64,000 nucleotides of DNA from Candidatus Kapaibacterium sp. (lineage in GTDB: Bacteria > Patescibacteriota > Patescibacteriia > UBA9934). Positions 1 to 50,337 of this stretch are shown piece after piece. The notes under the pieces were generated by a model. It saw nothing but the letters and a program-made list of their open reading frames with translations, searched no databases and had not been told where the DNA came from. The stretch is taken from positions 242,295 to 306,294 of the forward strand of contig JBILHA010000002.1 of the NCBI GenBank assembly GCA_044350705.1, given 5' to 3'. Position 1 is the first letter of the stretch. Every line of letters begins with the position of its first letter. Made by a program: the position numbers and the translations under genes.

Positions 1-385
1 AAAAAGCAGCTGAATCGCGCCTTGTGGACATGGAGAAACCGTGTCATCGAAATGATGGAAAATATCACGCCACCACCAATCCAATACGCACCAAACCAGA
101 ACATTATCAAAGCAAGCATGACTACTGACGAAGAAAGTTCGCCTTCCATAGGTTATAGAATGGAGTACGCCAGATAAGACATGAGCCCCGTTCCCAATGC
201 CGCAATGACCAGCGCAAATGAGAGCATATACAATGCCTGGCTCTCTTCGTGGTGCGCGAGCCATGCAATAAAGCCCGCAAGCGCTAGACAAATCACTGGA
301 AGAAACATCATATAGGAAAGTATAGCAAGAAGAGCGCGAAGGGATTTTACGTGAAAACGTGGGGATCTCGGGGGAATAGTGATCT

Positions 386-509
386 GAAAACCTTTTTATT
401 TCGAGGGATTTTTTACTCCGAAGAGGGAGGATTACCGATGCGTACTTACCGGTACGACGAGGCAACCGGACCGATGAGGGCAAAAAAGCACCGAAATAAA
501 AAGGTTTCC
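386..509 (+). ncRNA. Unclassified structured RNA element, copy 1 of 3 (tRNA-associated); 124 nt
   Basis: Closing helix gaaaacctttttatttcg (386-403) pairs with cgaaataaaaaggttt (492-507). Internal conserved boxes GAAGAGGGAGGATT (421-434), GTAC-stem hairpin cgtac-ttaccg-gtacg, and GAGGCAACCGGACCGATGAGG. About 80% identical to the copy at 7368-7491, with compensatory changes in the helix. Abuts the 3-prime end of tRNA-Ile on the opposite strand. Confidence 0.5.
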
Positions 510-512
510 CTT

Positions 513-589
513 TGGTAGGCCTGCCTGGATTCGAACCAGGGACCGCCGAGGTATAAGCTCGGAGCTCTAACCAACTGAGCTACAGGCCC
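513..589 (-). tRNA. tRNA-Ile, anticodon UAU (genomically encoded TAT)
   Basis: Reverse complement reads GGGCCTGTAGCTCAGTTGGTTAGAGCTCCGAGCTTATACCTCGGCGGTCCCTGGTTCGAATCCAGGCAGGCCTACCA, which folds as a cloverleaf. Acceptor GGGCCTG/CAGGCCT, anticodon stem CCGAG/CTCGG, loop CTTATAC, T-loop TTCGAAT, CCA encoded. The 5-prime half and 3-prime end CAGGCCTACCA resemble bacterial tRNA-Ile. Confidence 0.88.
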
Positions 590-597
590 ATACATTT

Positions 598-712
598 GCC
601 ACCCAAGTTTGTCCCTGGCGGTGTCGTGGGTCCCGACTGACTTCGTCAACGTCCATATAGGGGACGTCTCCTTGTCAGTCACCCACTCCTAGCCAGGAAC
701 AAACTTAGTGGC
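598..712 (-). other. Long imperfect hairpin (about 115 nt) immediately 5-prime of tRNA-Ile on the minus strand; possible leader or processing structure
   Basis: gccacccaagtttgtccctggc (598-619) is the near-reverse-complement of gccaggaacaaacttagtggc (692-712). Inner nested pairs gactgac/gtcagtc and acgtcc/ggacgt. Mismatches resolve to G-U wobbles only if the minus strand is the transcript. Confidence 0.4.
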
Positions 713-760
713 AAATGCATCGCTTCTTCATCACACGTCTCGCTTTTTTCATTTTTTTTA

Positions 761-785
761 CAACTGAACGAACTTAGTACCAAAT
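761..785. repeat. Conserved intergenic module M2 (caactgaacgaacttagtaccaaat), second copy at 61367-61391
   Basis: Near-identical 25-nt module shared with the region upstream of tRNA-Gly/capA. Confidence 0.6.
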
Positions 786-815
786 CTGCTTATCACGTTG
801 TATCAGACGGGTCGA

Positions 816-872
816 GGTACGCCTTGACGACCTTCCTCGCCCTTCCTTGAAGCTGACTAAACTTCGTAGCAA
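816..872. repeat. Conserved intergenic module M1 (ggtacgccttgacgaccttcctcgcccttccttgaagctgactaaacttcgtagcaa), second copy at 61251-61309
   Basis: About 90% identical over about 55 nt to 61251-61309. Contains a TTGACG box and, in copy B, a perfect 8-2-8 palindrome ctgactaa-ac-ttagtcag. Confidence 0.6.
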
Positions 873-928
873 CTTCTCAAAACTCCCCCACTATAGCTCA
901 AAGCCGTTCTTTCTGCCATACTTGCCCC

Positions 929-1858
929 ATGAAAACCTTTCATCCCTCTCAACCCGAGCCTACTCGGCTCGACATTGTGCTTGCTGCCTTCTTAGCAGTG
1001 AGTCGGTCCCAAGCCCAAAAGCGTATCGCTCAAGGCGATATCCGTATCAATGGAACTCCCGCTTCTTCGGCGCATGCTTTGGTATCTTCGTCTGATACGA
1101 TCGAGGTTACAGAAGCCCCTTTGCCTTCCGCGGAACCGCTTCCCCTTCCTCCTCTTACTATTCTCTATGAGGATGCAGATGTCGTGGTGGCAGAAAAAGC
1201 AGCGGGCGTACTCGTCCATCCTACCGGCGCCCAAGGCGCTCAAGAGCCTACCCTCATGGATGCAGTTATGACTCACTTTCCTCCCTTAGCTGGGGTGGGC
1301 GGTGATGCGCTGCGCTCCGGAGTCGTTCATCGCCTGGACCGTGAGGCTTCAGGGGTGCTTATTTTCGCCAAACATGATAAGGCGCATGCTTTTTTGAAGG
1401 AGCAGTTTAAGCAGCGTCTCACTAAAAAACTTTACGACGTTCTCGTGCTTGGTCGCGTGAAAGATGCGCACGGGACCATTACTTTCCCGATTGCTCGTTC
1501 CGCTCATCGAGGACGCATGGCTGCCCGACCCCTTTCTCAAGAGGGCAAAGATGCCATTACCCATTACGATGTCGTGCAGCATTACTCCTCTTCCACTCTT
1601 CTGCGCGTACATATTGAAACCGGTCGTACGCATCAGATTCGTGCTCATTTTTTTGCGCTCGGCCATCCTGTCGCGGGCGACACGCTGTATGTACAGCGCA
1701 ATCTCAAGCAGCTGAATCTGGGAAGACTTTTCCTCCATGCCGCCGAATTGCATCTCACTCTCCCGAATGGACAAGAGGCCATCTTCGCCTCTCCTCTTCC
1801 TCCCGACTTGCGCCAATTTCTTGAAGGACTCAAGCCCATGCCTTTATCTGCCGTATGA
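929..1858 (+). CDS. rluD: RluA/RluD-family 23S rRNA pseudouridine synthase with N-terminal S4 domain
   Basis: 309-aa ORF. HRLDREASGVLIFAKH catalytic motif typical of the RluA family, S4-like N-terminus, ATG at 929. Confidence 0.85.
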   Translation: MKTFHPSQPEPTRLDIVLAAFLAVSRSQAQKRIAQGDIRINGTPASSAHALVSSSDTIEVTEAPLPSAEPLPLPPLTILYEDADVVVAEKAAGVLVHPTGAQGAQEPTLMDAVMTHFPPLAGVGGDALRSGVVHRLDREASGVLIFAKHDKAHAFLKEQFKQRLTKKLYDVLVLGRVKDAHGTITFPIARSAHRGRMAARPLSQEGKDAITHYDVVQHYSSSTLLRVHIETGRTHQIRAHFFALGHPVAGDTLYVQRNLKQLNLGRLFLHAAELHLTLPNGQEAIFASPLPPDLRQFLEGLKPMPLSAV

Positions 1859-2412
1859 TCATTACGCTTGCCGGCCTCTCTGGGGCTGGAAAATCTACCG
1901 TCAAAAAAATTCTTGCCGACCGATTAGGATGGAAATCTTATTCCATGGGTGACATGCGCGGTGCATACGCACAAGAGCACGGAATGACCATTGATGAACT
2001 CAATGCTCTGGGCATGGAAGATCCTCAAACCGATGCGCTTGTGGATGAATTCCAAAAAGAACTCGGTGCACGAGAGGATAACTTTATTCTTGACGGCTGG
2101 CTCTCTTGGTATTTTATTCCGCAAAGTATTAAGGTCTTTTTAGACATTGACCCTGTCGAAGGAGCTCGACGCCTTTTTCGTGAGCAGCAGGATCACCCTG
2201 ACCATCGTCAGGATGAGCGAAAATACCGCGATATTGCCGATGTTCAAGAAACGCTTGCCCAGCGCGTCACGCAGAATCAGCAACGATATCAAAAGTGGTA
2301 TGGGGTCGATTTTCTCGATCCTGCTCATTACGATTTGCGCATTGATACCACCCCCCTGACGCCCGAGGAGGTAGCGGACCGCATCATGACCTATATTTCC
2401 TCGCGCGCTTGA
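1855..2412 (+). CDS. cmk: Cytidylate (CMP) kinase, short archaeal-type
   Basis: 185 aa. P-loop LAGLSGAGKST. ATG overlaps the rluD stop (ATGA coupling). Confidence 0.65.
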   Translation: MIITLAGLSGAGKSTVKKILADRLGWKSYSMGDMRGAYAQEHGMTIDELNALGMEDPQTDALVDEFQKELGAREDNFILDGWLSWYFIPQSIKVFLDIDPVEGARRLFREQQDHPDHRQDERKYRDIADVQETLAQRVTQNQQRYQKWYGVDFLDPAHYDLRIDTTPLTPEEVADRIMTYISSRA

Positions 2413-2472
2413 CGGTTTTTTGGTTTTTGGCTACCATTGGCGCATTCTTTTTTGGGAAATTCCCTCTTCAAT

Positions 2473-2820
2473 ATGGCACAAGTAAAAGACTACGCAGCAC
2501 TTGAACCTTCCGCTATTACTCCTGGGCAGGTTCTTCGCATTCATGAAAAGATCGTTGATATTGGCGCAAAAGGCGAAAAGCGTGAACGCGTCCAGATTTT
2601 CGAAGGCCTTGTTCTTGCTGTTCGCGGCGCAGGCCTTTCCAAGACCTTCACGATTCGCAAGGAAAGCAACGGATATGGGGTTGAGAAAATCTTCCCGGTC
2701 ACCACGCCTTCCATTGCAAAGATCGAATTGGTTAAGGCTTACCGCACCCGTCGTGCGCGTCTCACCTTCATCAAGGACTTTGCTCGTAAGTTGAAGGAAA
2801 TTGTTGTTGCAAAGGCGTAA
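2473..2820 (+). CDS. rplS: 50S ribosomal protein L19
   Basis: RVQIFEGLVLAVRGAGLSKTFTIRKESNGYGVEKIFPVTTP aligns with the conserved L19 core. The ORF track starts at a TTG (2437); the in-frame ATG at 2473 is preferred. Confidence 0.9.
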   Translation: MAQVKDYAALEPSAITPGQVLRIHEKIVDIGAKGEKRERVQIFEGLVLAVRGAGLSKTFTIRKESNGYGVEKIFPVTTPSIAKIELVKAYRTRRARLTFIKDFARKLKEIVVAKA

Positions 2821-2827
2821 TAAAAAA

Positions 2828-2860
2828 CTTCCTCGGGAAACCGAGGAAGTTTTTTATTTT
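2828..2860. terminator. Bidirectional rho-independent terminator between rplS (+) and the Cys-rich protein gene (-)
   Basis: cttcctcgg-gaaa-ccgaggaag perfect 9-bp stem with GAAA loop, followed by ttttttatttt. The reverse complement also ends in a U-tract. Confidence 0.8.
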
Positions 2861-4397
2861 ATGGCGTTAGGGTTACCGATCCTGAACATGCATAGTCATC
2901 AAATACATCGAATGCACCAAATCCTGTAAAGTTATCAAACACATCTTGTACCCAATTTGAGTCTACAAATCTACAGCTTCCTTGCTTCACCTCTCCTTTA
3001 TCGGCCAATTTACATGCGTCTTGCTCACACATCGAACCAAACACGTTCTTAAAGTCTTCAATTTGATCAGCAGATCCATAGTTGAGAATGTCCGCGATTC
3101 CGCCGCTTAAATCAACTCCATATGAATCAGCTTCGACATATTCATATGCTCCGCATCCATCTTCTAAGTCTGAAGCGACATCCTCGAGGAAGTAGCAATC
3201 AATATAGGTCCTTCCTTCCGTATAGAGAGCTACGCATTCATCTGCTCCTACTCCGTCTGCTCCAGAAAATTCAGAGAAGTCATCATCAAAATAGCAACTA
3301 TATACATGCTTGTCATTCGTCGCTCTCTTTTGCGCTTGTGAAGCTATTTGCGAACATACTGACGATGACGCCGTGAGACCGGTAGCAGAATTTAATGCTG
3401 ATACCTCTGCACATGAAACACACGTCCCCCCACTATTATCTCCTTTGATCACGCAGGATTTGCTCTTATCGTCACAGCCGCTATACATACAATCATCTCC
3501 CACTTCGGGAGGATTTGCGATGTTGAGGTTAATTTCATCATCTCCGCTTATCGTTCCCTTCTGCCCACACGTGCCGCTGATTTTCCCGTCGCTTGGGCAT
3601 GTACCGTCAATGCAAAATCCATATCCAAACAACGCCTCACACGTTGTGGCGTCATCAACCATCACCGCCTTTTTTACCAATGGGGGTCTGAGTTCATTAA
3701 ATCGAGTAAGGCGAGGATCTATAAGGTACGCGATGGCATATACCGACATGAGCAAAATGATCGCCGTGGCGGTATTGGCCATGCGGCCCTTTGCCTTTGC
3801 TACCGCGTTCTTATTCCCTCCTGCGGTCATGTACTGGAATCCCGCGATCGTAAACATGAGCGCACCAAAAATCCCCGCGACAGGGATCGCATAGGTGTAA
3901 ACAAGGTTTACATACGTTCCCAGGTTTGAAACCTGAGTTACCCCAAGAATAGGAACATTGAGCGTTACTGGCAGAAGTGGCCCATAGCAGTATCCCATCT
4001 CCGCCCCGGTTACCGATTGCTTGCTGCAATAGGGATTCTGATCACTCCACGTGCCTTTATACGTATCCCCCCCTATCTTTATCGGATAATCATTACACTC
4101 CTTTTCCGTCCAGCAGAGATTGCTATTCTCTGGATATGACGCTTCGTCCGCGAAGCATCCCACGTACGTCGCACCCCCATCTGCACATTCCGCAGCACAG
4201 GTGCTCGCGTCTTCTCTTCCTCCGATAGATCCTGCTCCTTGCTTCACGTCTCCACAAAAGCATTCACAGCTCGCTGCAATTGCTTGCGGAGCAAAAGATA
4301 TTCCCCAAAAAAACATCGCAACGACGAGTGCTATTCCTTTACTGAGCCAACGATTGTGCCGCTTCATACAAAATGCCATACGGGACTGCCCCTTCAA
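2859..4397 (-). CDS. Cysteine-rich (about 35 Cys) membrane protein; N-terminal signal/anchor plus a central two-TM hairpin reminiscent of VirB2/TrbC-type pilins; hypothetical
   Basis: 512-aa ORF. N-terminal hydrophobic segment LSKGIALVVAMFFWGISFAPQAIAAS. Two Cys-rich acidic domains (CECFCGD..., many CxxC, CxC, GTC motifs) separated by IPVAGIFGALMFTIAGFQYM - basic loop AGGNKNAVAKAKGRMANT - ATAIILLMSVYAIAYLI. Start overlaps the upstream dsbA-like gene. Confidence 0.6.
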   Translation of the reverse strand: MKGQSRMAFCMKRHNRWLSKGIALVVAMFFWGISFAPQAIAASCECFCGDVKQGAGSIGGREDASTCAAECADGGATYVGCFADEASYPENSNLCWTEKECNDYPIKIGGDTYKGTWSDQNPYCSKQSVTGAEMGYCYGPLLPVTLNVPILGVTQVSNLGTYVNLVYTYAIPVAGIFGALMFTIAGFQYMTAGGNKNAVAKAKGRMANTATAIILLMSVYAIAYLIDPRLTRFNELRPPLVKKAVMVDDATTCEALFGYGFCIDGTCPSDGKISGTCGQKGTISGDDEINLNIANPPEVGDDCMYSGCDDKSKSCVIKGDNSGGTCVSCAEVSALNSATGLTASSSVCSQIASQAQKRATNDKHVYSCYFDDDFSEFSGADGVGADECVALYTEGRTYIDCYFLEDVASDLEDGCGAYEYVEADSYGVDLSGGIADILNYGSADQIEDFKNVFGSMCEQDACKLADKGEVKQGSCRFVDSNWVQDVFDNFTGFGAFDVFDDYACSGSVTLTP

Positions 4398-5085
4398 TTT
4401 TTACTCCGTTTACGAACAATGTAGGGGTGGAAGTTACTCCCGCCGCAACACCGTCAGCGATGTCACCTGCGACCTCATTCTCGTAAAAATCTGATTCCAT
4501 GCATTGGATATATGTCCGTTTCTCCAAACCTGCCGAGAGGGCATACTGCAACAGATTTTCTTCCGTAAATTCCCCCGAGCTTTTATTGAGGAGCCTATAC
4601 ATTTCCTCATACTTTCCCTGCTCAGACGCGCATTCCGCTGCCATTGCTGCCTTATCTGCCCCTGGATGGAGGTCGGTGAGGGGAAAATCTCGCATGATCA
4701 CCCTTACTTTATCGCCCATATTACGTGCGATCGCTTCTAGCGCGTAACTTTCTTCTTGGGAATAGGGGCAGCCGAAGTCCGAGAAGGCAACGATCGTGAT
4801 GGGAGCATCCGCGGGGCCAAGCACCGGATCGTCCTCGGTTGCGAGCTCTCCACTCCCCTCGCTTTGTCTTGCCAACGCCGCAAGACGAGTTGCCGTAGCC
4901 TGGGTCGCATCGTATTTTTCCATGGGCAATAACTCTCCCGAGCGGAAATCCCGATAATAGGCAAAAATTTTCCAGGCAAACCCCCCCACCCCCACAAACA
5001 CCAATACAAATACGAAGGTTACAAGTGCTTTTACATAAGAAAATGCATGCCTGGGCCCTCCTTCCATATAGAAAAAGTATACCAT
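4339..5085 (-). CDS. DsbA-like thioredoxin-fold protein with monothiol CPYS active site, N-terminal membrane anchor
   Basis: 248 aa. FSDFGCPYSQ at the position of the DsbA CxxC; DNA tgc ccc tat tcc verified. C-terminal VTSTPTLFVNG is typical of the DsbA cis-Pro region. Hydrophobic N-terminus VTFVFVLVFVGVGGFAW. Confidence 0.7.
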   Translation of the reverse strand: MVYFFYMEGGPRHAFSYVKALVTFVFVLVFVGVGGFAWKIFAYYRDFRSGELLPMEKYDATQATATRLAALARQSEGSGELATEDDPVLGPADAPITIVAFSDFGCPYSQEESYALEAIARNMGDKVRVIMRDFPLTDLHPGADKAAMAAECASEQGKYEEMYRLLNKSSGEFTEENLLQYALSAGLEKRTYIQCMESDFYENEVAGDIADGVAAGVTSTPTLFVNGVKIEGAVPYGILYEAAQSLAQ

Positions 5086-5142
5086 CCCCTAAAATTCGTT
5101 CATCTTTACGCCCCCTCTCAGATTTGGTACACTCTCTTCGAT

Positions 5143-5358
5143 ATGATTTTGGATGTTATCCTTCTTATTCTCAGCGTACTTCTTTGTGGCGCTATCCTTC
5201 TTCAAGCTCGCGGTACCGACGCAGGGCTCGCATTTGGCGGAGATGGCAGCATGTATCGCACTCGCCGCGGCATTGAGAAATCTCTCCATGTAGGCACCAT
5301 TGTCCTTGCGGTACTCTTCTTTGTTACCGCGCTCTTGAACATGTTGTTTACTTGGTAA
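5143..5358 (+). CDS. secG: Preprotein translocase subunit SecG
   Basis: MILDVILLILSVLLCGAILLQARGTDAGLAFGG matches the SecG LLQxGKG..G..FG signature. The ORF track TTG start at 5047 gives an implausible extension. Confidence 0.8.
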   Translation: MILDVILLILSVLLCGAILLQARGTDAGLAFGGDGSMYRTRRGIEKSLHVGTIVLAVLFFVTALLNMLFTW

Positions 5359-5459
5359 ACGCACGTTCTCTGCTTCGCTCTCTTTTTTCACGCCTGGTTT
5401 CTCGAAAAAACGCCGGATCTCAATCGGGCGAACATTTGTCTCTTCGGCAGGTCAGCGCC

Positions 5460-7145
5460 ATGAAAGGCGGTAGGTACCTTCCTCGTTTTTCTCAAATTCA
5501 ACAGTTCCCTCGCATTCTTTCTTCCCTTGAGAAGCGCCTTTTCACCGCTGGGCTCGCGCTTTTCATATTAGGATCCGTCTTTCTCCTCATTGGAGGTTTT
5601 TCTCATTTTTTTGTTACCGTCCCTCAGCGCGGAGGCACGCTTACGGAAGGCATGCTCGGATATCCCCAGCTCATCAATCCCCTCTATGCCGATGCGAATA
5701 CCGTTGATCGTGAGCTGACCTCGCTTATTTATAGTGGCCTTCTTATTTACAATCCCACCTCCGATGCTCTTGAGCCTCATTTAGCGGAATCCTGGTCTTT
5801 AAGCGAAGATGAGAAAATGTACACTTTTACTCTCCGACAAGACGTTACTTGGCATGACGGAGAACCTTTTAGCGCATACGATGTCATTTTCACTTATTCT
5901 GCGCTCCAAAATGCCGCATACGGCAGTCCACTCTTTGATGCTTATCAAAATATTATTATTTCCCAGGTAGATGATCGTACGCTTACCTTTACGCTTGCCG
6001 AGCCTTACGCAGCATTTCCCGAACTTCTCACGGTAGGCATCCTTCCCGCCCACCTCTGGGAAGAAATAGCGCCTGCAAATGCTCGTCTCGTTGCGCTCAA
6101 CCTCAAGCCGGTTGGCACTGGTCCTTATCTTCTCGAAAAAACAAGCAAAGATTCTCGGGGTATTATTCGCAGCATCACTCTTCAAACTTTCGATGAGTAT
6201 CTCGGCATCCGCCCTTACCTCGATGAGATTATCGTTAAGTTCTTCTCAAACACCACGGACATCATGCAGGCGCTCCAGACAAAGCGCATCGATGCCACCG
6301 CTACTCTTTCTCTTACCGAAGCCCTCACCTTACAGGATGACAACGCACTTCGCATCACCCCCCTCCCGCTCTCTCAATACGTAGGGGCATTCTTCAATAC
6401 ACAAAAGGATCCGCTTAAGTCACTTGAAATCCGCAAGGCCCTCACCCTCTCACTTGATATTCCCGCCATCACCGCAGATGCAACAGGAAATCTGGGGCAG
6501 CCCACGGGATTCGCCCTGCCAGGCTTTCCTGCTACCGCCGCGAGCGTTCAGGATACTCAAACTGCCAGCCTCATCTTAGAAGAAGCTGGGTGGTCTCTCA
6601 ACGAGAACGGCAAGCGTACTCAAGGAAACAATGAGCTCACCCTTACTATCACCACCGCAGAACGCCCCGAGCTTCTGCGCGCCGCGGAAAAGGTAGCGGA
6701 AAACTGGAGATCTTTAGGCATTACCGTCACGGTCTCCCCCCTCTCCTACGCTGGCATTGCCACCGCTCTTCAAGAAAAGACCTACGATGTTCTTCTTGCC
6801 GCGGAGCAATATGGCATTATTGCCGATCCTTATCCATTCTGGCACTCCACAGGAAAGAATGCCGGCGGTCTCAATATGAGCCTCTTCTCGACTTCAGCAG
6901 CGGATACGGCGGTCAGTACTCTTCGAACTTCTGCAAATACTGAGAAGCGTCAAGAAGCGTTCAATACGCTCAATCAAGAACTTCTTGAGCACATGCCGGT
7001 CGTTTTCCTTTTCCAAAACGCCCTTCCGCTTGTCCATACCGTGGATATCATGGGGATAACTCCTGATGCCATCCCCCATACTTCTGCGCGCTGGCTCCTG
7101 GAATCTTCATGGTATCGCCGGACGGGCCTTTCTTGGAAGTTTTGA
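5460..7145 (+). CDS. ABC transporter substrate-binding protein, family 5 (OppA/DppA-like), membrane-anchored
   Basis: SBP_bac_5-like architecture in a 597-aa ORF; N-terminal TM LFTAGLALFILGSVFLLIGGF. ATG at 5460 preferred over the TTG at 5352. Confidence 0.75.
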   Translation: MKGGRYLPRFSQIQQFPRILSSLEKRLFTAGLALFILGSVFLLIGGFSHFFVTVPQRGGTLTEGMLGYPQLINPLYADANTVDRELTSLIYSGLLIYNPTSDALEPHLAESWSLSEDEKMYTFTLRQDVTWHDGEPFSAYDVIFTYSALQNAAYGSPLFDAYQNIIISQVDDRTLTFTLAEPYAAFPELLTVGILPAHLWEEIAPANARLVALNLKPVGTGPYLLEKTSKDSRGIIRSITLQTFDEYLGIRPYLDEIIVKFFSNTTDIMQALQTKRIDATATLSLTEALTLQDDNALRITPLPLSQYVGAFFNTQKDPLKSLEIRKALTLSLDIPAITADATGNLGQPTGFALPGFPATAASVQDTQTASLILEEAGWSLNENGKRTQGNNELTLTITTAERPELLRAAEKVAENWRSLGITVTVSPLSYAGIATALQEKTYDVLLAAEQYGIIADPYPFWHSTGKNAGGLNMSLFSTSAADTAVSTLRTSANTEKRQEAFNTLNQELLEHMPVVFLFQNALPLVHTVDIMGITPDAIPHTSARWLLESSWYRRTGLSWKF

Positions 7146-7210
7146 CCTTCCTCTCTTTTCATGATACGCTTTCTCGTGATTTTGCCGCGCTCTTACGCCG
7201 GCGTTTAGCG

Positions 7211-7250
7211 AAAAGGGATTTCGCATGGGTGCGTAGGGATTACGCTTGAG
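7211..7250. repeat. Direct repeat R1 (aaaagggatttcgcatgggtgcgtagggattacgcttg); partner R2 at 7592-7630
   Basis: About 75-80% identity over about 40 nt. The two copies flank the structured element plus tRNA-Leu(CAG). Confidence 0.5.
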
Positions 7251-7367
7251 GACATGGGTATTTCTCTTGAAAAACGGATGAATTGAGGGAGGAAAGGATT
7301 TCACCTGAAAGGAAATTTTTTCCTCAATAAAGAACGTATTTTTTCACTGATAATAAGCTCACTTCTG

Positions 7368-7491
7368 GAGAACGGCTTTATTTCGAGGCAGTTTTTGTTC
7401 CGAAGAGGGAGGATTGCCGAGAGGTACTCATGCGTACGGCGAGGCAACCGAACCGATGAAGACAAAAAATGACCGAGATAAAGCCGTTCTC
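7368..7491 (+). ncRNA. Unclassified structured RNA element, copy 2 of 3; 124 nt, ends 7 nt upstream of tRNA-Leu(CAG)
   Basis: Closing helix gagaacggctttatttcg (7368-7385) / cgagataaagccgttctc (7474-7491), 18 bp with one G-U. Internal boxes identical to copy 1. A G-U wobble supports the + strand being the RNA strand. Confidence 0.55.
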
Positions 7492-7498
7492 CCAACGG

Positions 7499-7585
7499 GC
7501 GGATGTGGCGGAATTGGCATACGCGCAGGTCTCAGAAGCCTGTCCTTTCACGAGGTTGAGGGTTCAAGTCCCTCCATCCGCACCA
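7499..7585 (+). tRNA. tRNA-Leu, anticodon CAG
   Basis: GCGGATG...CATCCGC-A-CCA acceptor. Anticodon stem CAGGT/GCCTG with loop CTCAGAA. Long variable arm (class II). T-loop GGTTCAAGTCC. CCA encoded. Confidence 0.9.
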
Positions 7586-7591
7586 AATGTA

Positions 7592-7630
7592 AAAAGGGAT
7601 TTCATATGGGAGTACGGGGATTACGCCTGG
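7592..7630. repeat. Direct repeat R2 (aaaagggatttcatatgggagtacggggattacgcctgg)
   Basis: Partner of R1 at 7211-7250. Begins 7 nt after the tRNA-Leu(CAG) CCA. Confidence 0.5.
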
Positions 7631-7741
7631 AAACGTAGGGAGTATGTATGGAAGCACGGTGAGTGAGGCGGTGGGAATGGGTTTAGTGTTTTTGTAAGTG
7701 TAGTTTCTTGAAAACTCGACTCACAAAAGTACTAAAACTTA

Positions 7742-9628
7742 ATGATTACTTTTATTATGGGAAATTTTAAACCATTCTCACCTTCTCCTCGCGCACCGCA
7801 GGGTGGAGGAAAACCCACTGGACGCAGCAGTGGTGGACGTCCCCCTTTTAAGCGAGGCGGCTTCCGTAAAGATATGCGCCGAGGACCTGCGGCTCCCCTT
7901 ACCCCTGCAGAAGTCGGGCAATCGGCTCCTCTTTTTGCGACTCCTACTGATGATAAAGTACGCGTCATTGTTCTGGGTGGTCTCGAGGAAGTCGGGATCA
8001 ACTGTACGCTGATTGAGTACAAAGATGACATTATCTTGGTAGACATGGGTCTCATGTTCCCTACCGAAGAGATGCCCGGCGTTGACTATCTTATCCCAAA
8101 CATGTCGTATGTTCGCGGAAAAGAAAAGAACATTCGGGGTGTTATTATCACCCACGGTCACTACGATCACATCGGTGCTATTCCTCATGTTGTACCAAAA
8201 ATTGGCAACCCTACCGTGTATGCACTTCCGGTTGCTGCGGGAATTATCAATAAGCGCCAGACTGACTTTCCAGAATCGAAAGTGAATGTAAAAACACTTG
8301 GCGTAGATTCCACCATTCAGCTCGGTGTCTTTAAAGTGCACTTCTTCCACATTAACCACAACATTCCTGATTCTGTAGGTATTGTTATTGAAACGCCCAA
8401 CGGCATCATCTGTCATACGGGCGACTGGAAGTACGACTTCCATCCCGTAGGCGCTCCTCCTGCAGACTTTCATAAGATGGCTCGTCTTGGCGAACAGGGA
8501 GTTACGCTTCTCATGGGCGACTCGACAAATGCTGATCGTGCCGGACACCAGAAATCAGAGAAGATTATCGGAGAAGAGCTTGAGAGCATTATTCAAAAGG
8601 CACGAGGCCGCGTTATTGTAGGCACCTTTGCCTCCCTCCTTTCACGCGTGAAGCAGATCATGGAGATCTCTGAACGTCATGGTCGCAAGATCGCGCTTGA
8701 TGGCTATTCCATGAAAACAAACGTGGAAATCGCGAAGGAACTTGGCTACATCAAAGTAGCGCAACGCAGCATTATCCCTATTGAGCAAGCAAACGAACTG
8801 CCTCCTGATAAGGTTACGATTATCTGTACGGGAGCACAGGGAGAAAAAAATGCAGCCCTTTCTCGTATCGCAAACGACGAGCACCGCTTCATCAAAATCG
8901 ATCGCGAAGACACCCTTATCTTCTCAAGCTCGGTGATTCCAGGAAATGAAGCGTCCGTCCAGCGCCTCAAAGATCTTCTCTACCGCAAGCGTGCACGCGT
9001 GATTCATAAAGATCTTATGGACGTTCACGCGGGTGGACACGCCATGAAGGAAGATATCAAGCTCATGCTTTCGCTCTTTAAACCCAAGTATTACATGCCT
9101 ATTGAAGGAAACCACTTCCTTCTTCGGGAGAATGCTGAAGTTGCCTATTCTATGGGCTGGAGCGAAGAAAACGTCTTCGTTGCAGACAACGGACAGATCA
9201 TCGAAATCTATCCTTCTGCAAAACCGGGCGTTTTGCCTGAGGCAAAGATCACCAAGGAAAAAGTTCCTACGGATCACGTCTATGTTGATGGACTTGGCGT
9301 GGGAGATATTTCCCAAGTCGTTCTGCGCGATCGTCAGGCGATGGCCGAAGACGGTATGCTCGTGGTTATCGCACAGTTCGAGCAACACACCGGTCGCCTT
9401 ATTACTGAGCCTGATATTGTCAGCCGAGGTTTTATCCAGATGAAGGAGAACAAGGAATTCGTGACGAGCATGCGCCAGCACCTCGCAAAGGCACTTCATG
9501 ACGTAAACCCTGCAACTCCCCTTGATCCTGAACAGGCAAAGAGCATTATCCGCGAAGAACTTGGCAAGTTCCTCTTCCAAAAGACGGAACGTCGCCCAAT
9601 GATTCTTCCGGTGATTATTGAGGTATAA
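7742..9628 (+). CDS. rnj: Ribonuclease J (metallo-beta-lactamase / beta-CASP) with a 70-aa Arg/Gly-rich N-terminal extension
   Basis: ITHGHYDHIGAIPH (HxHxDH) motif and RNase J domain order across a 628-aa ORF. N-terminus PRAPQGGGKPTGRSSGGRPPFKRGGFRKDMRRGP. Confidence 0.85.
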   Translation: MITFIMGNFKPFSPSPRAPQGGGKPTGRSSGGRPPFKRGGFRKDMRRGPAAPLTPAEVGQSAPLFATPTDDKVRVIVLGGLEEVGINCTLIEYKDDIILVDMGLMFPTEEMPGVDYLIPNMSYVRGKEKNIRGVIITHGHYDHIGAIPHVVPKIGNPTVYALPVAAGIINKRQTDFPESKVNVKTLGVDSTIQLGVFKVHFFHINHNIPDSVGIVIETPNGIICHTGDWKYDFHPVGAPPADFHKMARLGEQGVTLLMGDSTNADRAGHQKSEKIIGEELESIIQKARGRVIVGTFASLLSRVKQIMEISERHGRKIALDGYSMKTNVEIAKELGYIKVAQRSIIPIEQANELPPDKVTIICTGAQGEKNAALSRIANDEHRFIKIDREDTLIFSSSVIPGNEASVQRLKDLLYRKRARVIHKDLMDVHAGGHAMKEDIKLMLSLFKPKYYMPIEGNHFLLRENAEVAYSMGWSEENVFVADNGQIIEIYPSAKPGVLPEAKITKEKVPTDHVYVDGLGVGDISQVVLRDRQAMAEDGMLVVIAQFEQHTGRLITEPDIVSRGFIQMKENKEFVTSMRQHLAKALHDVNPATPLDPEQAKSIIREELGKFLFQKTERRPMILPVIIEV

Positions 9629-12889: not shown

Positions 12890-13463
12890 CCTGGCCAGCA
12901 AGACGATTGCCCCAAGAACTCAATCATAAGAAAGAGTGGGAGAACGTTCTTATTTTGGACTAGTTTCGGCGCGCGACGCTGCTTGGGTCGTCAAGACGTA
13001 CAAAATAGTACGTCGTCGACACAAGCAAGGAGCAAGCTGAAAATAGACGAAATAAGAACGTTCTCTTGGGGAGGAAAGTCCGAACACCCTTTATGCAGCA
13101 ATGCATATCGCAGAAAAGGCGTTGCTAACAGCAACCGCGCGTAAGCGTAGGGAAAGTCTCGTGCAAACGAAAGAATGCGCGGGGTCAGAACCTGCTGGAA
13201 ACGGCAGGCAATGACGCAACAGAGACATTCAAGCCCGCCCTGATTCGTTCGAGCGGGCAAAAGGTGAAACGTGTGGGGTGCGCAAGCTTCCCCACTCCCT
13301 GCATGGTGACATGCAGCGGTGGCAAACCCGCCTTGGTGCAAGAGCAAATTTGGTAGCTCGCGCTGAGCATGCTGGCGACAGCATGCCAAGAGAGATGATC
13401 GTCTCCCACTTCGCTCCTTCGGAGCTTCGTCGGGAACAGAATTCGGCTTATCAGTTGACCAGG
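12890..13463 (+). ncRNA. rnpB: RNase P RNA (bacterial type) with an unusually expanded 5-prime (P1-P3) region
   Basis: GGGGAGGAAAGTCCGAACACC (13068-13088; P4 5-prime strand) and ACAGAATTCGGCTTATCAG (13436-13454; P4 3-prime strand). GTGAAACG motif. P1 candidates cctggccag (12890-12898) / ttgaccagg (13455-13463). Core 13055-13463 is confident; the 5-prime boundary is less so. Confidence 0.7.
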
Positions 13464-13481
13464 TATGAAAAAATCCGTCGA

Positions 13482-27511: not shown

Positions 27512-30421
27512 TCAAGTTTTCTCTTCTACCTTAAACCCAATGACCATATCTCGCTCATGTACACGAAGCGGCTGTTCTTGCACTACGTCACTTCCTTTTC
27601 CAAACATCAGGAAAGCTGCTTGCGTATCCAACTTTAATGACTCTCCGTGCTCATCGAGCATCTTTGACACATCTTCATGTTCTGAGCTCACAAAGAGCGT
27701 GATGCGATCTTGAATCGTTAGCCCTGCTTCTTTTCGCATCGCGTTTACTTTGCGCGTGACTTCACGTGCCATTCCTTCGCGGATAAGCTCGGGAGTGAGC
27801 TCTGCATTTAAGGCTACCGCACGCTCCCCCTTGGTGACGGTTACCTTCTTTACGTTTACTTCATCTGCAAAGACCTGTGCGTATTGCTCAGGAAGTTCTC
27901 CCGATGGAAGAGTCACCATTGCTTCGCCTAATGCTTGTTTTACCGGAATACCCACCTGTTCGCGTACTTCAAGCGCACGAGAAACAAGTGCGCGGACGTC
28001 GGACATTTGCTCGAGGACGTTGGGTGTTGGGTGTTGGGTGTTGGGTTTTGGCCACATTTCCAAATGCACGGATGAGCGTTTTTCTCCTAAGAATTTGCCG
28101 TCGAGTTCTTGATATACCATCTCTGCTAAAAATGGCATGAATGGCGCGAGCATCTTAGCGAAGGTATCGAGAACTGTGCGCAAGGTTGCGAGCGCATCCT
28201 TTTGCACCTCTTCCCCTTCTTTTCCCGACATACGGTCGCGTGAACGACGGACATACCAGGTCGAGAGGTCGGTTACAAATGACTGTAAGGTTCGTGCGGC
28301 CCGGTCAAGCTCGTATGACTCCATCGCAGCAGTCTCTTCCTTCAAGGTCTCGTTAAGGCGCGCGAAGATCCATGCATCAAGGACGTGTGCTCCTTTTGCG
28401 CTGCGACCATCGTCATGTTCGCGATACAGCGAATAGAATGCGACAACGTTGCGCAAAATAGTAATGAATTTCTTGGATACTTCATCTACTTCCTTTTCCG
28501 CAAAACGAAGATTTTCTGCGGCGACTACCGGAGTAGACATGAGGTAGTAGCGCACCGCATCTGCGCCATACTTTTCCATCACCTCCATGGGATCAGGATA
28601 GTTTTTGAGCTTCTTGCTCATTTTCTTTCCATCTTCCGCAAGCACGATGCCGTTTACGATCACGTTCTTGAATGCAGGTTTTTCAAACAAAGCATCTGCA
28701 AGAACATGGAGGGTATAGAACCACCCCCGCGTTTGATCTTGCCCTTCTGCGATAAAGTCTGCAGGGAATTTTTGCGTAAAGCTTTGCGCGTTCTCGAACG
28801 GATAGTGAAGCTGCGCGTACGGCATGGAACCGCTTTCAAACCAGCAGTCGAGCACTTCAGGAATGCGTCGGAAGGTTTTTCCGTTTTTTACAATTTCCAA
28901 AGAATCCACCACATGTTTGTGCAGGTTCTTTACATCGTGCCCCACGTATTGCTCTAACTCAGCCACACTTCCAAGCACCAACACTTCCCCATCTTCTGCT
29001 TTCCATACCGGAAGCGGGGTACCCCAGTAGCGTGAGCGTGAGATTGCCCAATCACGTGCGCCTTCGAGCCACTTTCCAAAGCGGCCTTCTTTCATGTTTT
29101 CAGGTACCCAACGAATCTCCTGATTGTTCTTGAGGAGTCGGTCGGTCATTGAGGATACGCGCACAAACCACGACGTGGTTGCGTAGTTGAGGAGTGGCGT
29201 ATCACAACGCCAGCAGTGGGGGTAACTGTGAGAAAGTTTTTCCTTGGAAAAAAGCTTTCCATGATGCGCAAGCCATTTGATAATTTGAATATCAACCGCG
29301 CTGTACTCCCCCTTTGTTTTCATGGGAACACCTGCAACGGCATAACCTTCTTCGCTCATGGGCTTTGCCACTTCATCGACAAATTCGCCGTTTGTTTTTA
29401 CATGCATGAGCGGCTTCACGTTCTCCGCTTCTCCAAGCGCCATGTCATCAGCGCCGTAGCCAGGAGCAATGTGCACGATTCCGGTTCCGTCGGTATCGGA
29501 AACGAAATCTGCAGAAACCACACGGAAAGCATTTGCATGCGTGCGGAAATACGGAAAGAGTGGATCGTACGTTGATTGCGCCAGCGTCGAACCTGAGAAT
29601 TTCTCACCTATCGTGTATTCCTTGCCTTTGAAGACTCGTTCAATACAGGAAGTTGCGAGGATATATTTCTTGTCTTCACTTGTTACTTCTGCGTATTCCA
29701 TGTCCGCACCTACCGCGAGAAGTACGTTTCCGGGGAGGGTCCACGGCGTCGTCGTCCAGGCAAGAATGTGCGCACCCTTGCGAGGACCGCTCGTGAGTTC
29801 GAATGCTGCGGTTGCGGAGATGTCGGCCACATCCAAATAGCCTTGCGCAACTTCAAAGTTTGAAAGCGTGGTTTCGCAACGAGGGCAGAGGTGCATGGAC
29901 TTGTAGCCTTCGTAGATGTAGCCCTTTTTCCAAAGCGTCTGGAATACCCACCAGATTGACTCCATGAAGGGAAGGTCCATGGTGCGATAGGCATTTTCCA
30001 TGTCGACCCAGCGACCAAGGCGGCGAATGACCTTCTTCCATTCTGCAGCGTACTCCATCACTTTTCCTTCACAGCGATCGTTAAATGCACCGACGCCATA
30101 GGCTTCGATGTCCTTTCGACTCTTGAGATCAAATTCTTTCTCAACGATGTTTTCGATAGGCAGTCCATGGCAATCCCATCCCCACACGCGATCCACCCGA
30201 TAGCCACGCATCGTCCAAAAACGAGGGATGACGTCCTTCATCACACTTGCCACGATATGACCGTAATGCGGCAGTCCGGTTGCAAATGGCGGACCATCGT
30301 AAAAGGTATACGGCTTATTTTCCGGACGTTCTCGTACGGAGCGGCCAAAAATATCGTGTTTCTCCCAGTATTCCAGGACCTCTTTTTCTCGTTCGCTTTG
30401 CGTTTTATGCATATCAGGCAT
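27512..30421 (-). CDS. ileS: Isoleucyl-tRNA synthetase
   Basis: 969 aa. PPFATGLPHYGH (HIGH), GWDCHGLP, KMSKKL. Contains an in-frame low-complexity insertion PKPNTQHPTPN encoded by a (TGTTGGG)x4 tandem repeat at 28019-28046. Confidence 0.9.
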   Translation of the reverse strand: MPDMHKTQSEREKEVLEYWEKHDIFGRSVRERPENKPYTFYDGPPFATGLPHYGHIVASVMKDVIPRFWTMRGYRVDRVWGWDCHGLPIENIVEKEFDLKSRKDIEAYGVGAFNDRCEGKVMEYAAEWKKVIRRLGRWVDMENAYRTMDLPFMESIWWVFQTLWKKGYIYEGYKSMHLCPRCETTLSNFEVAQGYLDVADISATAAFELTSGPRKGAHILAWTTTPWTLPGNVLLAVGADMEYAEVTSEDKKYILATSCIERVFKGKEYTIGEKFSGSTLAQSTYDPLFPYFRTHANAFRVVSADFVSDTDGTGIVHIAPGYGADDMALGEAENVKPLMHVKTNGEFVDEVAKPMSEEGYAVAGVPMKTKGEYSAVDIQIIKWLAHHGKLFSKEKLSHSYPHCWRCDTPLLNYATTSWFVRVSSMTDRLLKNNQEIRWVPENMKEGRFGKWLEGARDWAISRSRYWGTPLPVWKAEDGEVLVLGSVAELEQYVGHDVKNLHKHVVDSLEIVKNGKTFRRIPEVLDCWFESGSMPYAQLHYPFENAQSFTQKFPADFIAEGQDQTRGWFYTLHVLADALFEKPAFKNVIVNGIVLAEDGKKMSKKLKNYPDPMEVMEKYGADAVRYYLMSTPVVAAENLRFAEKEVDEVSKKFITILRNVVAFYSLYREHDDGRSAKGAHVLDAWIFARLNETLKEETAAMESYELDRAARTLQSFVTDLSTWYVRRSRDRMSGKEGEEVQKDALATLRTVLDTFAKMLAPFMPFLAEMVYQELDGKFLGEKRSSVHLEMWPKPNTQHPTPNVLEQMSDVRALVSRALEVREQVGIPVKQALGEAMVTLPSGELPEQYAQVFADEVNVKKVTVTKGERAVALNAELTPELIREGMAREVTRKVNAMRKEAGLTIQDRITLFVSSEHEDVSKMLDEHGESLKLDTQAAFLMFGKGSDVVQEQPLRVHERDMVIGFKVEEKT

Positions 30422-45501: not shown

Positions 45502-46272
45502 TTAGGTCATGGCTTTGTACCGCTCTGCGATCGCCAACTCTTCCGGCGTATTCACGCCAATCACTGAAAGTGCGTCAGTGGTTGTCGTAAGAAGTTTTAA
45601 GCCTTCTTCAAAAGCAATGTGCACGACATCAGTAAGATAATACTCACCACTGGCATTTTTATTTGTGAGCTTTTCAAGTGCCTCTGCAAGCCACGTCGCA
45701 GGAAAGATATACATTGCGGGATTTATTTCTTGGATAGCAAGCTCTTCAGGAGATGCATCTTTCGCTTCTCTAATGTCACTCACCCTTCCTTCCTTGTCTC
45801 GCAATATTCTTCCCCAACTTCTAAACCCTTGATATTCCCCCTCGTATGAAGGAACTCTCGCGGTAAGCATGTGTACTGCAGTTGGTTCAATTCTAAACGC
45901 CTCTATCAGCTCTTGGAGCACTTGCTTCGGAAGAAAAGGATGATCCGCATTCAATACCATGATGCCATCCGCATCTTCCCAAAGGTTACGAGATGCCTTT
46001 ACGGCATCTCCCGTTCCTAATGCTTCTTGTTGAAGCGCATACTCCACTCTCTCCCCTAGCACCTCTCTAAAAAGCACTTCTCCTGAAGGAGATACTACCA
46101 CTATCGGCTTTTTCTGCTCTGAGAGATCTGTGATCGTTTCCACTAGATGCTGCACCATGGGCTTGCCTGCAATAGGGACAAGTGGTTTAGGCACTGATAA
46201 CCCCATCCGCTTTCCTTTTCCTGCTGCGAGGATAACTGTTTTTACCAGAGACATATGGAAAAATCCTATCAT
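45502..46272 (-). CDS. Sugar-phosphate nucleotidyltransferase (GlmU N-terminal-like)
   Basis: VILAAGKGKRM nucleotide-binding motif. Stop overlaps the ddl-like start. Confidence 0.7.
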   Translation of the reverse strand: MIGFFHMSLVKTVILAAGKGKRMGLSVPKPLVPIAGKPMVQHLVETITDLSEQKKPIVVVSPSGEVLFREVLGERVEYALQQEALGTGDAVKASRNLWEDADGIMVLNADHPFLPKQVLQELIEAFRIEPTAVHMLTARVPSYEGEYQGFRSWGRILRDKEGRVSDIREAKDASPEELAIQEINPAMYIFPATWLAEALEKLTNKNASGEYYLTDVVHIAFEEGLKLLTTTTDALSVIGVNTPEELAIAERYKAMT

Positions 46273-47174
46273 TTCCGCAAGGATTCTTCAATCCATTCTT
46301 GGAAGAGATTTTCCTCAGAAATACCAGCAGTTTTCAGCATTTTTGGCATGAGTGAAGTAGCGGTATATCCGGGAATGGTATTTATTTCTAAAAACCATAA
46401 CCCCCCTTCCTCATCCATCATGATGTCCGTACGCGTCATATGAGTACATCCAATTGCTTTATGCGCCTTCAAAGCAATCTCTTGAAGGCGTGCGGCAAGC
46501 TCCCCATCAATCCGCGCAGGACATACTTCTTCTGCGAGATTTTCTGCACTGTATTTTTGCTCATAGTCAAAGAATGACTTGGCAACAATCTCTACAACAG
46601 GGAGCGCAATTGTTCCTTTTTTTCCCTCAATAACCCCCACGGTAAATTCCCTTCCCACAATACGCCGCTCAACGATAATTTTTTCTGTTACTTCCGCCGC
46701 TCTCTTTATCGCCTCCTGGTACTCCTCCTCAGATGCAGCGATGCAGGTTGCAACCGAACTCCCTCCATCGCCCGGCTTTACCACCACGGGATAGCCTGGA
46801 TATTTGCTCTCTCCTCCTTTTTGCACTACATATCCTTCCGGAGAAGCAACGCCCACCTGGTGTACCCTCTCTTTTGCGCGATCTTTTTGGAGCGCAATCT
46901 CATGTGCTTCGCTCGGAGAAAAAATAAAAGGGATATCCATTTTTTTCAACCACCTTTGTATCTCTCCATCTTCGCCTCCTTTTCCGTGCATTACGGGGAC
47001 AGCAAGATCTATCGTCTCTTTCTCTCGAATAAATACATCCATTGCTTCCGGAAAAATAAATGTTTTTACGGGATAGTGGATTCCGATAATCCGCGCGATA
47101 TTTTCCGCTGATCGTAATGAGATTACTCTTTCAGTGCTTTCGCCTCCCGTTATCACCGCAATTGTATGGGTCAT
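46269..47174 (-). CDS. ddl: D-alanine--D-alanine ligase family (ATP-grasp)
   Basis: N-terminal IAVITGGESTERVISLRSA and the ATP-grasp C-terminus are typical of Ddl. Substrate not provable from sequence. Confidence 0.75.
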   Translation of the reverse strand: MTHTIAVITGGESTERVISLRSAENIARIIGIHYPVKTFIFPEAMDVFIREKETIDLAVPVMHGKGGEDGEIQRWLKKMDIPFIFSPSEAHEIALQKDRAKERVHQVGVASPEGYVVQKGGESKYPGYPVVVKPGDGGSSVATCIAASEEEYQEAIKRAAEVTEKIIVERRIVGREFTVGVIEGKKGTIALPVVEIVAKSFFDYEQKYSAENLAEEVCPARIDGELAARLQEIALKAHKAIGCTHMTRTDIMMDEEGGLWFLEINTIPGYTATSLMPKMLKTAGISEENLFQEWIEESLRK

Positions 47175-50261: not shown

Positions 50262-50337
50262 GATCTTATGTGCTTCTCGCACAAGAATACTGATTGAAGA
50301 AATGCTTTTGCATTCGTCAGCCACCACGCGTTTTGCG

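Follow-up and report, generated by a model that had tools for sequence, protein, structure and literature searches.

Features of the locus

We analysed a stretch of 64,000 nt from the contig JBILHA010000002.1 of Candidatus Kapaibacterium sp. (Patescibacteriota), which is referred to as the window hereafter. The organism is a patescibacterium close to Candidatus Uhrbacteria. The subjects of the analysis are a gene for tRNA-Ile with the anticodon UAU, located near the left end of the window, and two long hairpins between which this gene lies. The hairpins on the 5′ and 3′ sides of the tRNA are, respectively, referred to as the leader and the trailer. The features found in and around this locus are as follows.

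153–311, minus strand: gene for a small membrane protein of 52 amino acids, downstream of the tRNA gene, an adjacency kept in relatives
380–516, plus strand: trailer hairpin, inverted relative to the tRNA (paired arms; covariance model R2, 133.1 bits)
513–589, minus strand: tRNA-Ile gene, anticodon UAU (ARAGORN, tat; Rfam tRNA model, 70.5 bits, E = 2e-13)
590–722, minus strand: leader hairpin, in the sense orientation of the tRNA (inverted-repeat arms; covariance model R1, 131.9 bits)
763–881, minus strand: incomplete, degenerate copy of the element that forms the leader, located upstream of it (R1, 12.8 bits, E = 0.4)
890–919, minus strand: promoter-like site ATGGCA-18-TATAGT, the putative promoter of the tRNA transcript
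929–1858, plus strand: gene for an RluA-family pseudouridine synthase (RluD-like, with S4 and PseudoU_synth_2 domains; TIGR00005, 222.9 bits), divergent neighbour of the tRNA gene

The tRNA-Ile(UAU) gene and its inheritance

A preliminary description of this DNA, made from the sequence alone, had placed a minus-strand tRNA-Ile gene with the anticodon UAU at 513–589. This assignment was confirmed: ARAGORN, which found five tRNAs within the window, gave the same anticodon, the Rfam tRNA model matched there, and the anticodon loop CTTATAC, also claimed in that description, is seen when the sequence (GGGCCTGTAGCTCAGTTGGTTAGAGCTCCGAGCTTATACCTCGGCGGTCCCTGGTTCGAATCCAGGCAGGCCTACCA) is read directly. 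The gene is 77 nt long and gives a canonical cloverleaf without an intron (ARAGORN); its 3′ end is CAGGCCTACCA, so that CCA is encoded in the gene. The identity of this end to that of E. coli tRNA-Ile, claimed in the preliminary description, is plausible. Positions 1 and 72 form a G–U wobble pair. Direct reading also finds U12–A23, C4–G69, and A73, whose role as identity elements of tRNA-Ile has been established from E. coli. Matches to this tRNA occur in 20 of 5426 E. coli genomes at 78.5% identity, and all of them are prophage-borne tRNA-Ile genes; one (L135; NZ_CP017220.1, 2058989–2059065) belongs to a tRNA cluster flanked by antitermination and lysis genes. We judged these prophage genes irrelevant to the window gene.

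The loci fetched for comparison with the window are numbered L001–L135. Among them, the orthologous loci were reached via homologues of the neighbouring RluA-family gene and a genome scan, while a metagenome scan with a clade-specific tRNA pattern gave one locus only (L125), which carries no hairpins. The ten tRNA-Ile(UAU) genes of the Uhrbacteria clade, namely, that of the window and those of nine relatives, can be aligned without gaps. All 189 stem cells of this alignment are paired (100%), compensatory changes are found in 6 stem pairs, and the anticodon loop is unchanged in all ten genes. The G1–U72 pair is retained in 8 of the 9 distinct Uhrbacteria sequences; it was also seen in UAU tRNAs of other phyla (e.g., L001, L006, and L090) in the species scan described below. 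The gene order is likewise kept in the relatives: the divergent rluA gene, tRNA-Ile, two small membrane-protein genes, and tRNA-Val. In the window, the gene for the 52-amino-acid membrane protein has its own −10 box (TTGCTATACT, at about 318–327). Because of the conserved synteny, the tRNA-Ile(UAU) gene can be regarded as vertically inherited, and the sequence comparison indicates that it is under purifying selection. The synteny thus argues against an acquisition of the gene, which the preliminary description had considered.

The hairpins flanking the tRNA gene

The preliminary description had reported an imperfect hairpin of about 115 nt at 598–712, with G–U wobbles consistent with the minus strand. 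The hairpin exists and the strand assignment holds, but its extent had been underestimated: it covers 590–722, with arms at 590–602/708–720 and 605–619/692–706. It ends 0–1 nt before position +1 of the tRNA. Its structure consists of a long outer stem, the conserved CTAAGTTTG/CAAACTTGGG box including an invariant U–G pair, internal loops that contain AGGAG and GACACCG, and a stem ACGT..ACGT at the apex. In the sense of the tRNA, it contains four G–U pairs and folds at −80.4 kcal/mol, as against no G–U pair and −65.5 kcal/mol in the antisense. The value of −80.4 kcal/mol, obtained for the 140 nt upstream of the tRNA, corresponds to z = −13.4 relative to shuffled sequences, the most extreme among the 120 tRNA-Ile(UAU) loci listed in the species scan, most of the others being between −3 and +2.

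The structured element that the same description had noted on the 3′ side of the tRNA was also recovered. The arms of this trailer are at 388–413/482–507 (z = −6.5), and its 3′ end, in the orientation of the element, abuts the 3′ end of tRNA-Ile. The segment 386–500 is 80% identical to 7368–7482, which is located directly upstream of tRNA-Leu(CAG). As a whole, the 511-nt region 370–880 folds at −200.8 kcal/mol (z = −6.7), a value that none of 100 shuffled sequences attained. A scan of positions 1–1000 for intrinsic terminators, which have a short G+C-rich stem with a U run behind it, gave no terminator-like site, and therefore the trailer is not a classical terminator.

Upstream of the leader, the 5′ half of the partial copy (815–867) is 94% identical to a part of the tRNA-Gly leader (61250–61302). 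The promoter-like site beyond it recurs in all relatives as TATGGCAGAAAGAA..TTTGAGCTATAGT, with hardly a base changed. In one of them (L132), this site is only about 25 nt away from tRNA-Ile with nothing between them; in the window, the interval between the two is occupied by the partial copy and the leader. Since the leader is located between the conserved promoter-like site and the tRNA, it would have to be contained in the primary transcript.

A family of elements associated with stable-RNA genes

Copies of the element were searched for with the two covariance models R1 and R2. Six full copies were found in the window: those at 380–516 (plus strand) and 585–723 (minus strand), which correspond to the trailer and the leader of tRNA-Ile, and the four given below. 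Two partial copies exist at 763–881 (minus strand) and 57424–57486 (plus strand). A seventh full copy is located just outside the window.

7362–7498, plus strand: leader of tRNA-Leu(CAG) (7499–7585) (R2, 134.1 bits)
12891–13466, plus strand: RNase P RNA gene of about 576 nt (Rfam, 118.8 bits with upstream sequence included)
12934–13072, plus strand: element in the P3 loop of the RNase P RNA (R2, 122 bits)
57503–57641, plus strand: leader of tRNA-Leu(UAG) (57639–57722) (R2, 118.8 bits; partial copy, 21.7 bits)
61177–61316, minus strand: leader of tRNA-Gly(GCC) (61107–61181) (R1, 106 bits)
about 620–840 bp past the right window end (L134, 13166–13387): sense leader of tRNA-Leu(UAA), with the CTAAGTTTG/CAAACTTGGG box

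All seven full copies touch a stable-RNA gene. Five of them are sense leaders that end 0–6 nt before position +1 of tRNA-Ile, tRNA-Gly, or one of the three tRNA-Leu species (4–5 nt for tRNA-Leu(UAA)), and they account for 5 of the 7 tRNA genes in the 82 kb composed of the window and an 18-kb flank. The tRNA-Ala and tRNA-Val genes of the same genome have plain promoters and no element. As for the RNase P RNA, the first Rfam match (13043–13466, 103.7 bits) had missed P1–P3, and the 142-nt insertion in P3 turned out to be the element. When seven copies are aligned together, one common architecture of about 130 nt is found: the outer stem is long and A+T-rich, and it is accompanied by a purine-rich stretch (GAAGAGGGAGGA or CAAGGAAGAGCGAGGA), by ..CGTAC-loop-GTACG.. 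as the apical stem, and by a 3′ internal CCG..GA. The hairpin context, which according to the preliminary description could reflect special processing, regulation, or acquisition, is not special to this tRNA and no sign of its acquisition: members of the family are also found before tRNA-Gly and three tRNA-Leu genes and within the RNase P RNA, while the orthologous tRNA-Ile(UAU) genes of L132, L031, and L125 are without any hairpin.

Rfam has no family for these elements at the gathering score over the whole window or, apart from the tRNAs, at E < 1 over positions 1–8000. The T-box, Y-RNA/YrlA, integron attC, and K-turn modules were also considered and rejected, as there was no Rfam match and the motifs do not fit. 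A small open reading frame (ORF) in the leader was rejected as well, its ATG not being conserved in L128.

Constraint at the RNA level and patchy distribution

Covariation was examined using the tRNA-Ile leaders of the window, L127, L128, L129, and L133, together with the tRNA-Gly leader of the window. The consensus hairpin has 40 pairs; 95% of the cells are paired, and 17 of the 40 pairs show double changes, values that none of 500 shuffles reached, although these figures are to be read with the proviso that the structure was derived from the same sequences and that palindromes can self-correct at the DNA level. When the partner strand is slid, only 29–44% of the cells are paired. The outer ten pairs differ by species and yet stay complementary (gcca/tggc, cctg/cagg, gtcg/cggc, and ctga/tcag), while the CTAAGTTTG/CAAACTTGGG box, with its U–G pair and a bulged G, is invariant across the aligned leaders. 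A strand-specific signal was also found: the sense fold is better than the antisense fold by 5–19 kcal/mol in 11 of 12 element copies, and over the 12 copies G–U pairs number 40 in the sense and 21 in the antisense.

The occurrence of the element at orthologous loci is patchy. Both leader and trailer are present in the window and L133, the trailer of the latter having a longer form; the leader is present and the trailer absent in L127–L129. Only a remnant, the 3′ arm ACAAACTTGGGCAGCAAGTTCA, is left in L130; L132 has neither hairpin; and L031 and L125, with a 94% identical tRNA, lack the element and possess a promoter of their own. Because the leader is absent or shortened at some of the orthologous loci, it must be dispensable there. 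In a more distant member of the Uhrbacteria (L069), a leader is found on tRNA-Ile and an inverted copy at the 3′ end of tRNA-Val; among 100 other tRNA-Ile(UAU) loci (725 kb, mostly from the Candidate Phyla Radiation, CPR), the element was found in this locus only.

Two observations concern the ends of the element. In a strain variant (L124, 655–785), the flanking DNA switches right after the trailer, and substitutions are found in the distal half of the trailer; this pattern suggests recombination between element copies. In addition, three Logan contigs end at or in elements: L122 (1–117) inside the trailer, and L126 and L131 at their starts.

Interpretation of the hairpins

The reading that we favour, by a modest measure of confidence, is that a vertically inherited, AUA-reading tRNA-Ile is accompanied here by passenger hairpins that are transcribed inside stable-RNA transcripts. 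Both hairpins belong to a single family restricted to Uhrbacteria, whose members, according to this reading, would live inside such transcripts. The leader would be transcribed as the 5′-terminal hairpin of pre-tRNA-Ile and be cut off by RNase P at position +1, possibly after a double-strand-specific cut. It would be an accessory passenger that the UAU tRNA does not need, and the trailer would be a later insertion in the inverted orientation. The element may have been kept foldable since a self-contained hairpin would not disturb the host RNA, as is the case with the intervening sequences (IVSs) of 23S rRNA and with the enterobacterial ERIC repeats.

The IVSs, known from Salmonella, Leptospira, and others, are located in helices of 23S rRNA and are excised by RNase III. 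Like the present element, they are self-contained, self-folding hairpins of about 100–150 nt that take the place of a loop in a stable RNA and occur sporadically among strains or gene copies; the 142-nt insertion in P3 of the RNase P RNA matches this pattern exactly, and the patchy leaders and trailers also fit it. The hosts differ, being rRNA helices in the one case and pre-tRNA leaders and RNase P RNA in the other, where excision is putative. ERIC (also called IRU) and Correia-type repeats are imperfect palindromes of about 125–150 nt in transcribed non-coding regions. They resemble the element in being multicopy, in occurring in either orientation, and in their patchiness among relatives, but they are not tied to tRNA 5′ ends or RNase P RNA, and two characteristics of Correia elements, the target-site duplications and the conserved terminal inverted repeats, are not seen here.

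Several points weigh against the passenger reading. The strict tie of the element to tRNA 5′ ends is striking for a passive passenger, and another copy is present inside the RNase P RNA itself. A function would account for this placement and for the cross-species purifying selection on the structure no less well. RNase P is expected to be hindered by a helix abutting position +1. Moreover, the window ORFs tested gave no RNase III (rnc) gene, and nothing was found that could explain the spread of the element, be it mobility machinery, a target-site duplication, or near-identical copies.

These points lead to the alternative that the hairpins serve the stable-RNA metabolism of this clade as functional cis-elements, which we regard as unlikely, though deserving serious attention. 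The element may be a 5′-terminal stabiliser that shields the pre-tRNA from a 5′-exonuclease (RNase J) until RNase P acts, or a protein-binding module common to the RNase P RNA (in P3) and its substrates, by which the enzyme is tethered to the pre-tRNAs. A function of this kind would account for the sense leaders on 5 of the 7 tRNA genes in the 82 kb, all ending within 6 nt of the mature tRNA, and for the filling of the P3 loop by the same module; the covariation and the persistence of the U–G pair, the bulge, and the loop motifs across species, as well as the sense-strand G–U bias, which indicates a constraint at the RNA level, are also in its favour. Promoter-like −10 boxes, as read by eye only, are located just upstream of the element starts, and an RNase J gene exists in the window (7742–9628). 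The function is, however, hard to reconcile with the element-free tRNA-Ala and tRNA-Val of the same genome, with the tRNA-Ile(UAU) orthologues that lack the element (L132, L031, and L125) or retain only a remnant (L130), and with the inverted orientation of the trailer copies. The apical loops are neither conserved nor mutually complementary, and no candidate binding protein was identified.

The other alternative is set at the DNA level: the hairpins may be mobile palindromes, similar to miniature inverted-repeat transposable elements (MITEs) or REPINs, that target the ends of tRNA genes, and their RNA structure may be incidental. The patchy presence among orthologous loci, the several copies per genome, the contigs ending at or inside elements, and the recombination inside the trailer of L124 are what such elements would give; furthermore, the 3′ end of the element abuts the end of a tRNA gene in either orientation, which suits the recognition of the acceptor-stem inverted repeat in DNA. 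The characteristics of MITEs and Correia-like elements are nevertheless missing. The copies are mutually just 54–66% identical, and no near-identical ones were found; no target-site duplication is visible when filled and empty sites are compared; the terminal arms vary while staying complementary, unlike conserved transposase sites; and the copy in the P3 loop lies away from any tRNA end. The window ORFs tested, about a dozen of which have no family match, gave neither a transposase nor a RAYT domain. Both the strand asymmetry of the G–U pairs and the energy gap between the sense and antisense folds point to a constraint at the RNA level. Because of this strand-specific signal and the covarying, rather than conserved, termini, mobile DNA palindromes are the least likely of the three explanations of the hairpins and, in our estimation, improbable.

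The element family is an undescribed one with real covariation, and as far as was seen it occurs only in pre-tRNA leaders, in tRNA 3′ flanks, and in RNase P RNA. It is either a selfish insert of a new kind, adapted to stable-RNA transcripts, or a new processing signal; the hairpins may have a role in tRNA processing. If the element is shared for a purpose, one (dimeric) protein or an RNA–RNA contact could tether RNase P to the pre-tRNAs through it; such a tether would be a bacterial analogue of the eukaryotic P3/Pop-protein modules.

Distribution of tRNA-Ile(UAU)

The preliminary description had also regarded a genuine tRNA-Ile(UAU) as rare. We scanned 185,579 species, one genome each, with the generic pattern GCTCAG-N1-3-GGTNAGAGC-N6-CTTATA-N7-GGTC and grouped the matches by record title. 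At least 120 loci matched, a sample that gives no estimate of frequency; of the 120 matches listed, all but one (119) were confirmed by ARAGORN to contain a tat tRNA. Among these 120, the CPR/Patescibacteria account for at least 64 and include Saccharibacteria, Parcubacteria, Uhrbacteria, Magasanikbacteria, Peregrinibacteria, and Dojkabacteria. Smaller numbers come from Planctomycetota (6 matches: L004, L013, L022, L025, L028, and L047), Chloroflexota or Dormiibacterota (7: L001, L008, L029, L045, L086, L090, and L104), and DPANN archaea (7: L035, L049, L051, L055, L056, L070, and L109). A further 13 of the matches listed are small metagenome-assembled genomes, including one 931-kb chromosome, labelled 'uncultured Gammaproteobacteria'; these labels look doubtful.

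The view that this tRNA is rare agrees with the literature, in which nine species without tilS carrying a TAT gene (Taniguchi 2013; PMC3575796) and, in tRNADB-CE of 2014, 19 species with tRNA-Ile(UAU) (PMC4013482) have been reported; according to a 2021 review, UAU has been lost in prokaryotes (PMC8007984), and 'rare cases' in bacteria is the wording still used by a 2026 preprint (bioRxiv 10.64898/2026.02.03.703510). It does not hold for the present lineage: with at least 64 CPR members among the 120 matches listed, tRNA-Ile(UAU) is ordinary there. The scan suggests that CPR/Patescibacteria carry the gene as a matter of routine and that it turns up again in Planctomycetota, Chloroflexota, and DPANN archaea. 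In the literature searched, no paper brings CPR/Patescibacteria together with lysidine or TilS or with RNase P RNA. This apparent breadth of the UAU-type tRNA-Ile across CPR is, together with the hairpin family, the most interesting residue of the analysis.

An RluA-family ORF is located less than 400 bp from tRNA-Ile(UAU) in about 10 of the 120 matches listed (L017, L040, L050, L059, L069, L076, L091, L094, L099, L110, and L112). These loci span several CPR groups, and their number is far above that of chance adjacency. The adjacency could be an old synteny or a hint of pseudouridylation in the anticodon, as in eukaryotic tRNA-Ile(UAU).

Decoding of AUA

The UAU anticodon of this minor tRNA-Ile would read AUA directly. 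The enzyme that most likely charges it is encoded 27 kb away in the window.

27512–30421, minus strand: gene for isoleucyl-tRNA synthetase (IleRS) of type 2, without a zinc-binding domain, the presumed charging enzyme (TIGR00392, 894.9 bits)

The sequence characteristics of this enzyme class it as a type-2 IleRS with a eukaryote/archaeal-like C-terminus. Pfam finds the C-terminal DUF5915 and no zf-FPG_IleRS; among PDB entries, cytoplasmic IleRS and IleRS2 match at 670–765 bits, as against 260–320 bits for IleRS1; and the MupA/MupB models match at about 700 bits. The best named homologues are from Patescibacteria and Candidatus Uhrbacteria, one relative being 97% identical. The coding region contains a 7-nt tandem repeat, GTTGGGT, in 4.7 copies (28019–28051, 96% matches).

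AUA is in use in this genome: in the 35 genes of the window with family support, it amounts to 5.7 per 1000 codons and 9.3% of the Ile codons, and it occurs in 25 of these genes. A cruder count over all window ORFs gives 7.8 per 1000 codons. The single AUA codon of the IleRS gene aligns with V or I in homologues, and the RluA-family gene has none, numbers too small to be informative. It was also found that 36 of the 71 AUA codons of the 35 genes are in four adjacent minus-strand genes at 45502–50072, which encode an NTP transferase, a D-Ala-D-Ala ligase, a PPDK-like protein, and a rhodanese-domain protein. This is the part of the window lowest in GC (0.44–0.46), and it may be an acquired island.

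Three known systems are comparable with that of the window. Mycoplasma mobile, for which the absence of tilS and an unmodified U34 have been shown (PMC3575796), likewise has a genome-encoded bacterial tRNA-Ile2(UAU) and decodes AUA without lysidine on that tRNA. Its IleRS, however, is of type 1, with a zinc-binding domain having Arg865 instead of Trp, whereas the window IleRS is of type 2 and has no such domain in which Arg or Lys could take the position of the wobble-contacting Trp. Bifidobacterium and Neorickettsia species without tilS have a UAU tRNA paired with a eukaryote-type IleRS (PMC3575796). The pairing in the window, tRNA-Ile(UAU) and type-2 IleRS in one genome, is identical to theirs; the differences are that these species are reported to be tilS-less and belong to other lineages, and that the UAU gene appears far more widespread in CPR. 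The cytoplasmic tRNA-Ile(UAU) of eukaryotes is also served by a type-2 IleRS, which accepts the pseudouridine-A-pseudouridine anticodon (PMC3575796), and the tRNA gene of the window adjoins an RluA-family gene.

The eukaryotic gene differs from that of the window in its intron, which is required for the formation of pseudouridine-34/36 by Pus1; the window gene has none. Judged from its sequence and gene content, the window thus carries a functional AUA-reading tRNA-Ile of the Bifidobacterium/Neorickettsia type (UAU with IleRS2), which is typical of CPR and whose charging and decoding are predicted.

On the other hand, the tRNA may be redundant rather than the sole decoder of AUA. According to this possibility, the gene would be redundant or transitional, as in Lactobacillus casei, and tilS and a tRNA-Ile(CAU) located elsewhere in the genome would do most of the AUA decoding. 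We consider this a real, if somewhat doubtful, prospect; it concerns the decoding strategy and overlaps with the explanations of the hairpins, so that its likelihood is not to be added to theirs. No TilS or PP-loop ORF was found in the window and its 18-kb flank, but these 82 kb belong to a genome of at least 462 kb, which leaves room for such genes. Family scans of 61 window ORFs gave no tilS, the 8.5 kb past the right window end contained none either, and a search for the PP-loop motif in the window ORFs and about 0.9 Mb of fetched loci gave nothing relevant. The fetched loci contain 19 CAT tRNAs, in which tRNA-Ile(CAU) is inseparable from tRNA-Met by inspection. Bacteria with both systems have been documented by Taniguchi (2013; PMC3575796), and IleRS2 and TilS occur together in about half of all bacteria (bioRxiv 10.64898/2026.02.03.703510); because of the latter, the type of IleRS alone tells nothing about tilS, and a type-2 IleRS does not imply its loss. 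Redundancy is, however, at odds with the clear purifying selection and the invariant anticodon loop in at least 10 Uhrbacteria genomes, and with the spread of the gene throughout CPR, which would be unexpected for a dispensable duplicate in genomes of about 1 Mb.

If tilS is absent, AUA would be read without lysidine in a very large share of bacterial diversity, and CPR would be a natural system for asking how U34 avoids AUG. This lysidine-free decoding across CPR would depend on the UAU tRNA and a eukaryote-type IleRS, and the neighbouring RluA-family enzyme might contribute by pseudouridylation. That such decoding prevails throughout CPR is, like the reading of the hairpin as a recognition module common to RNase P and pre-tRNAs, a possibility to which we give little credence.

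Other observations in the window

G-triplet repeats of the form GGGAnT, spaced at about 10.5 or 21 nt (GGGAGTGAG/GGGAGTAAG, 2.7 copies), flank tRNA-Leu(CAG) on both sides (7211–7269 and 7592–7650), and they are also found after tRNA-Leu(UAG) (57738–57761) and at 55367–55415. The pattern with 21-nt spacing has 4 matches, as compared with 0.15 expected by chance. In the region given by 50146–53370 (minus strand) and 53490–53993 (plus strand), the 23S and 5S rRNA genes are standalone, without a 16S rRNA gene or spacer tRNAs, and a gene for an RlmH-like SPOUT methyltransferase adjoins the 23S rRNA gene. The match to 23S rRNA is about 100 nt longer than the Rfam model, and the 23S rRNA gene may carry a small insertion.

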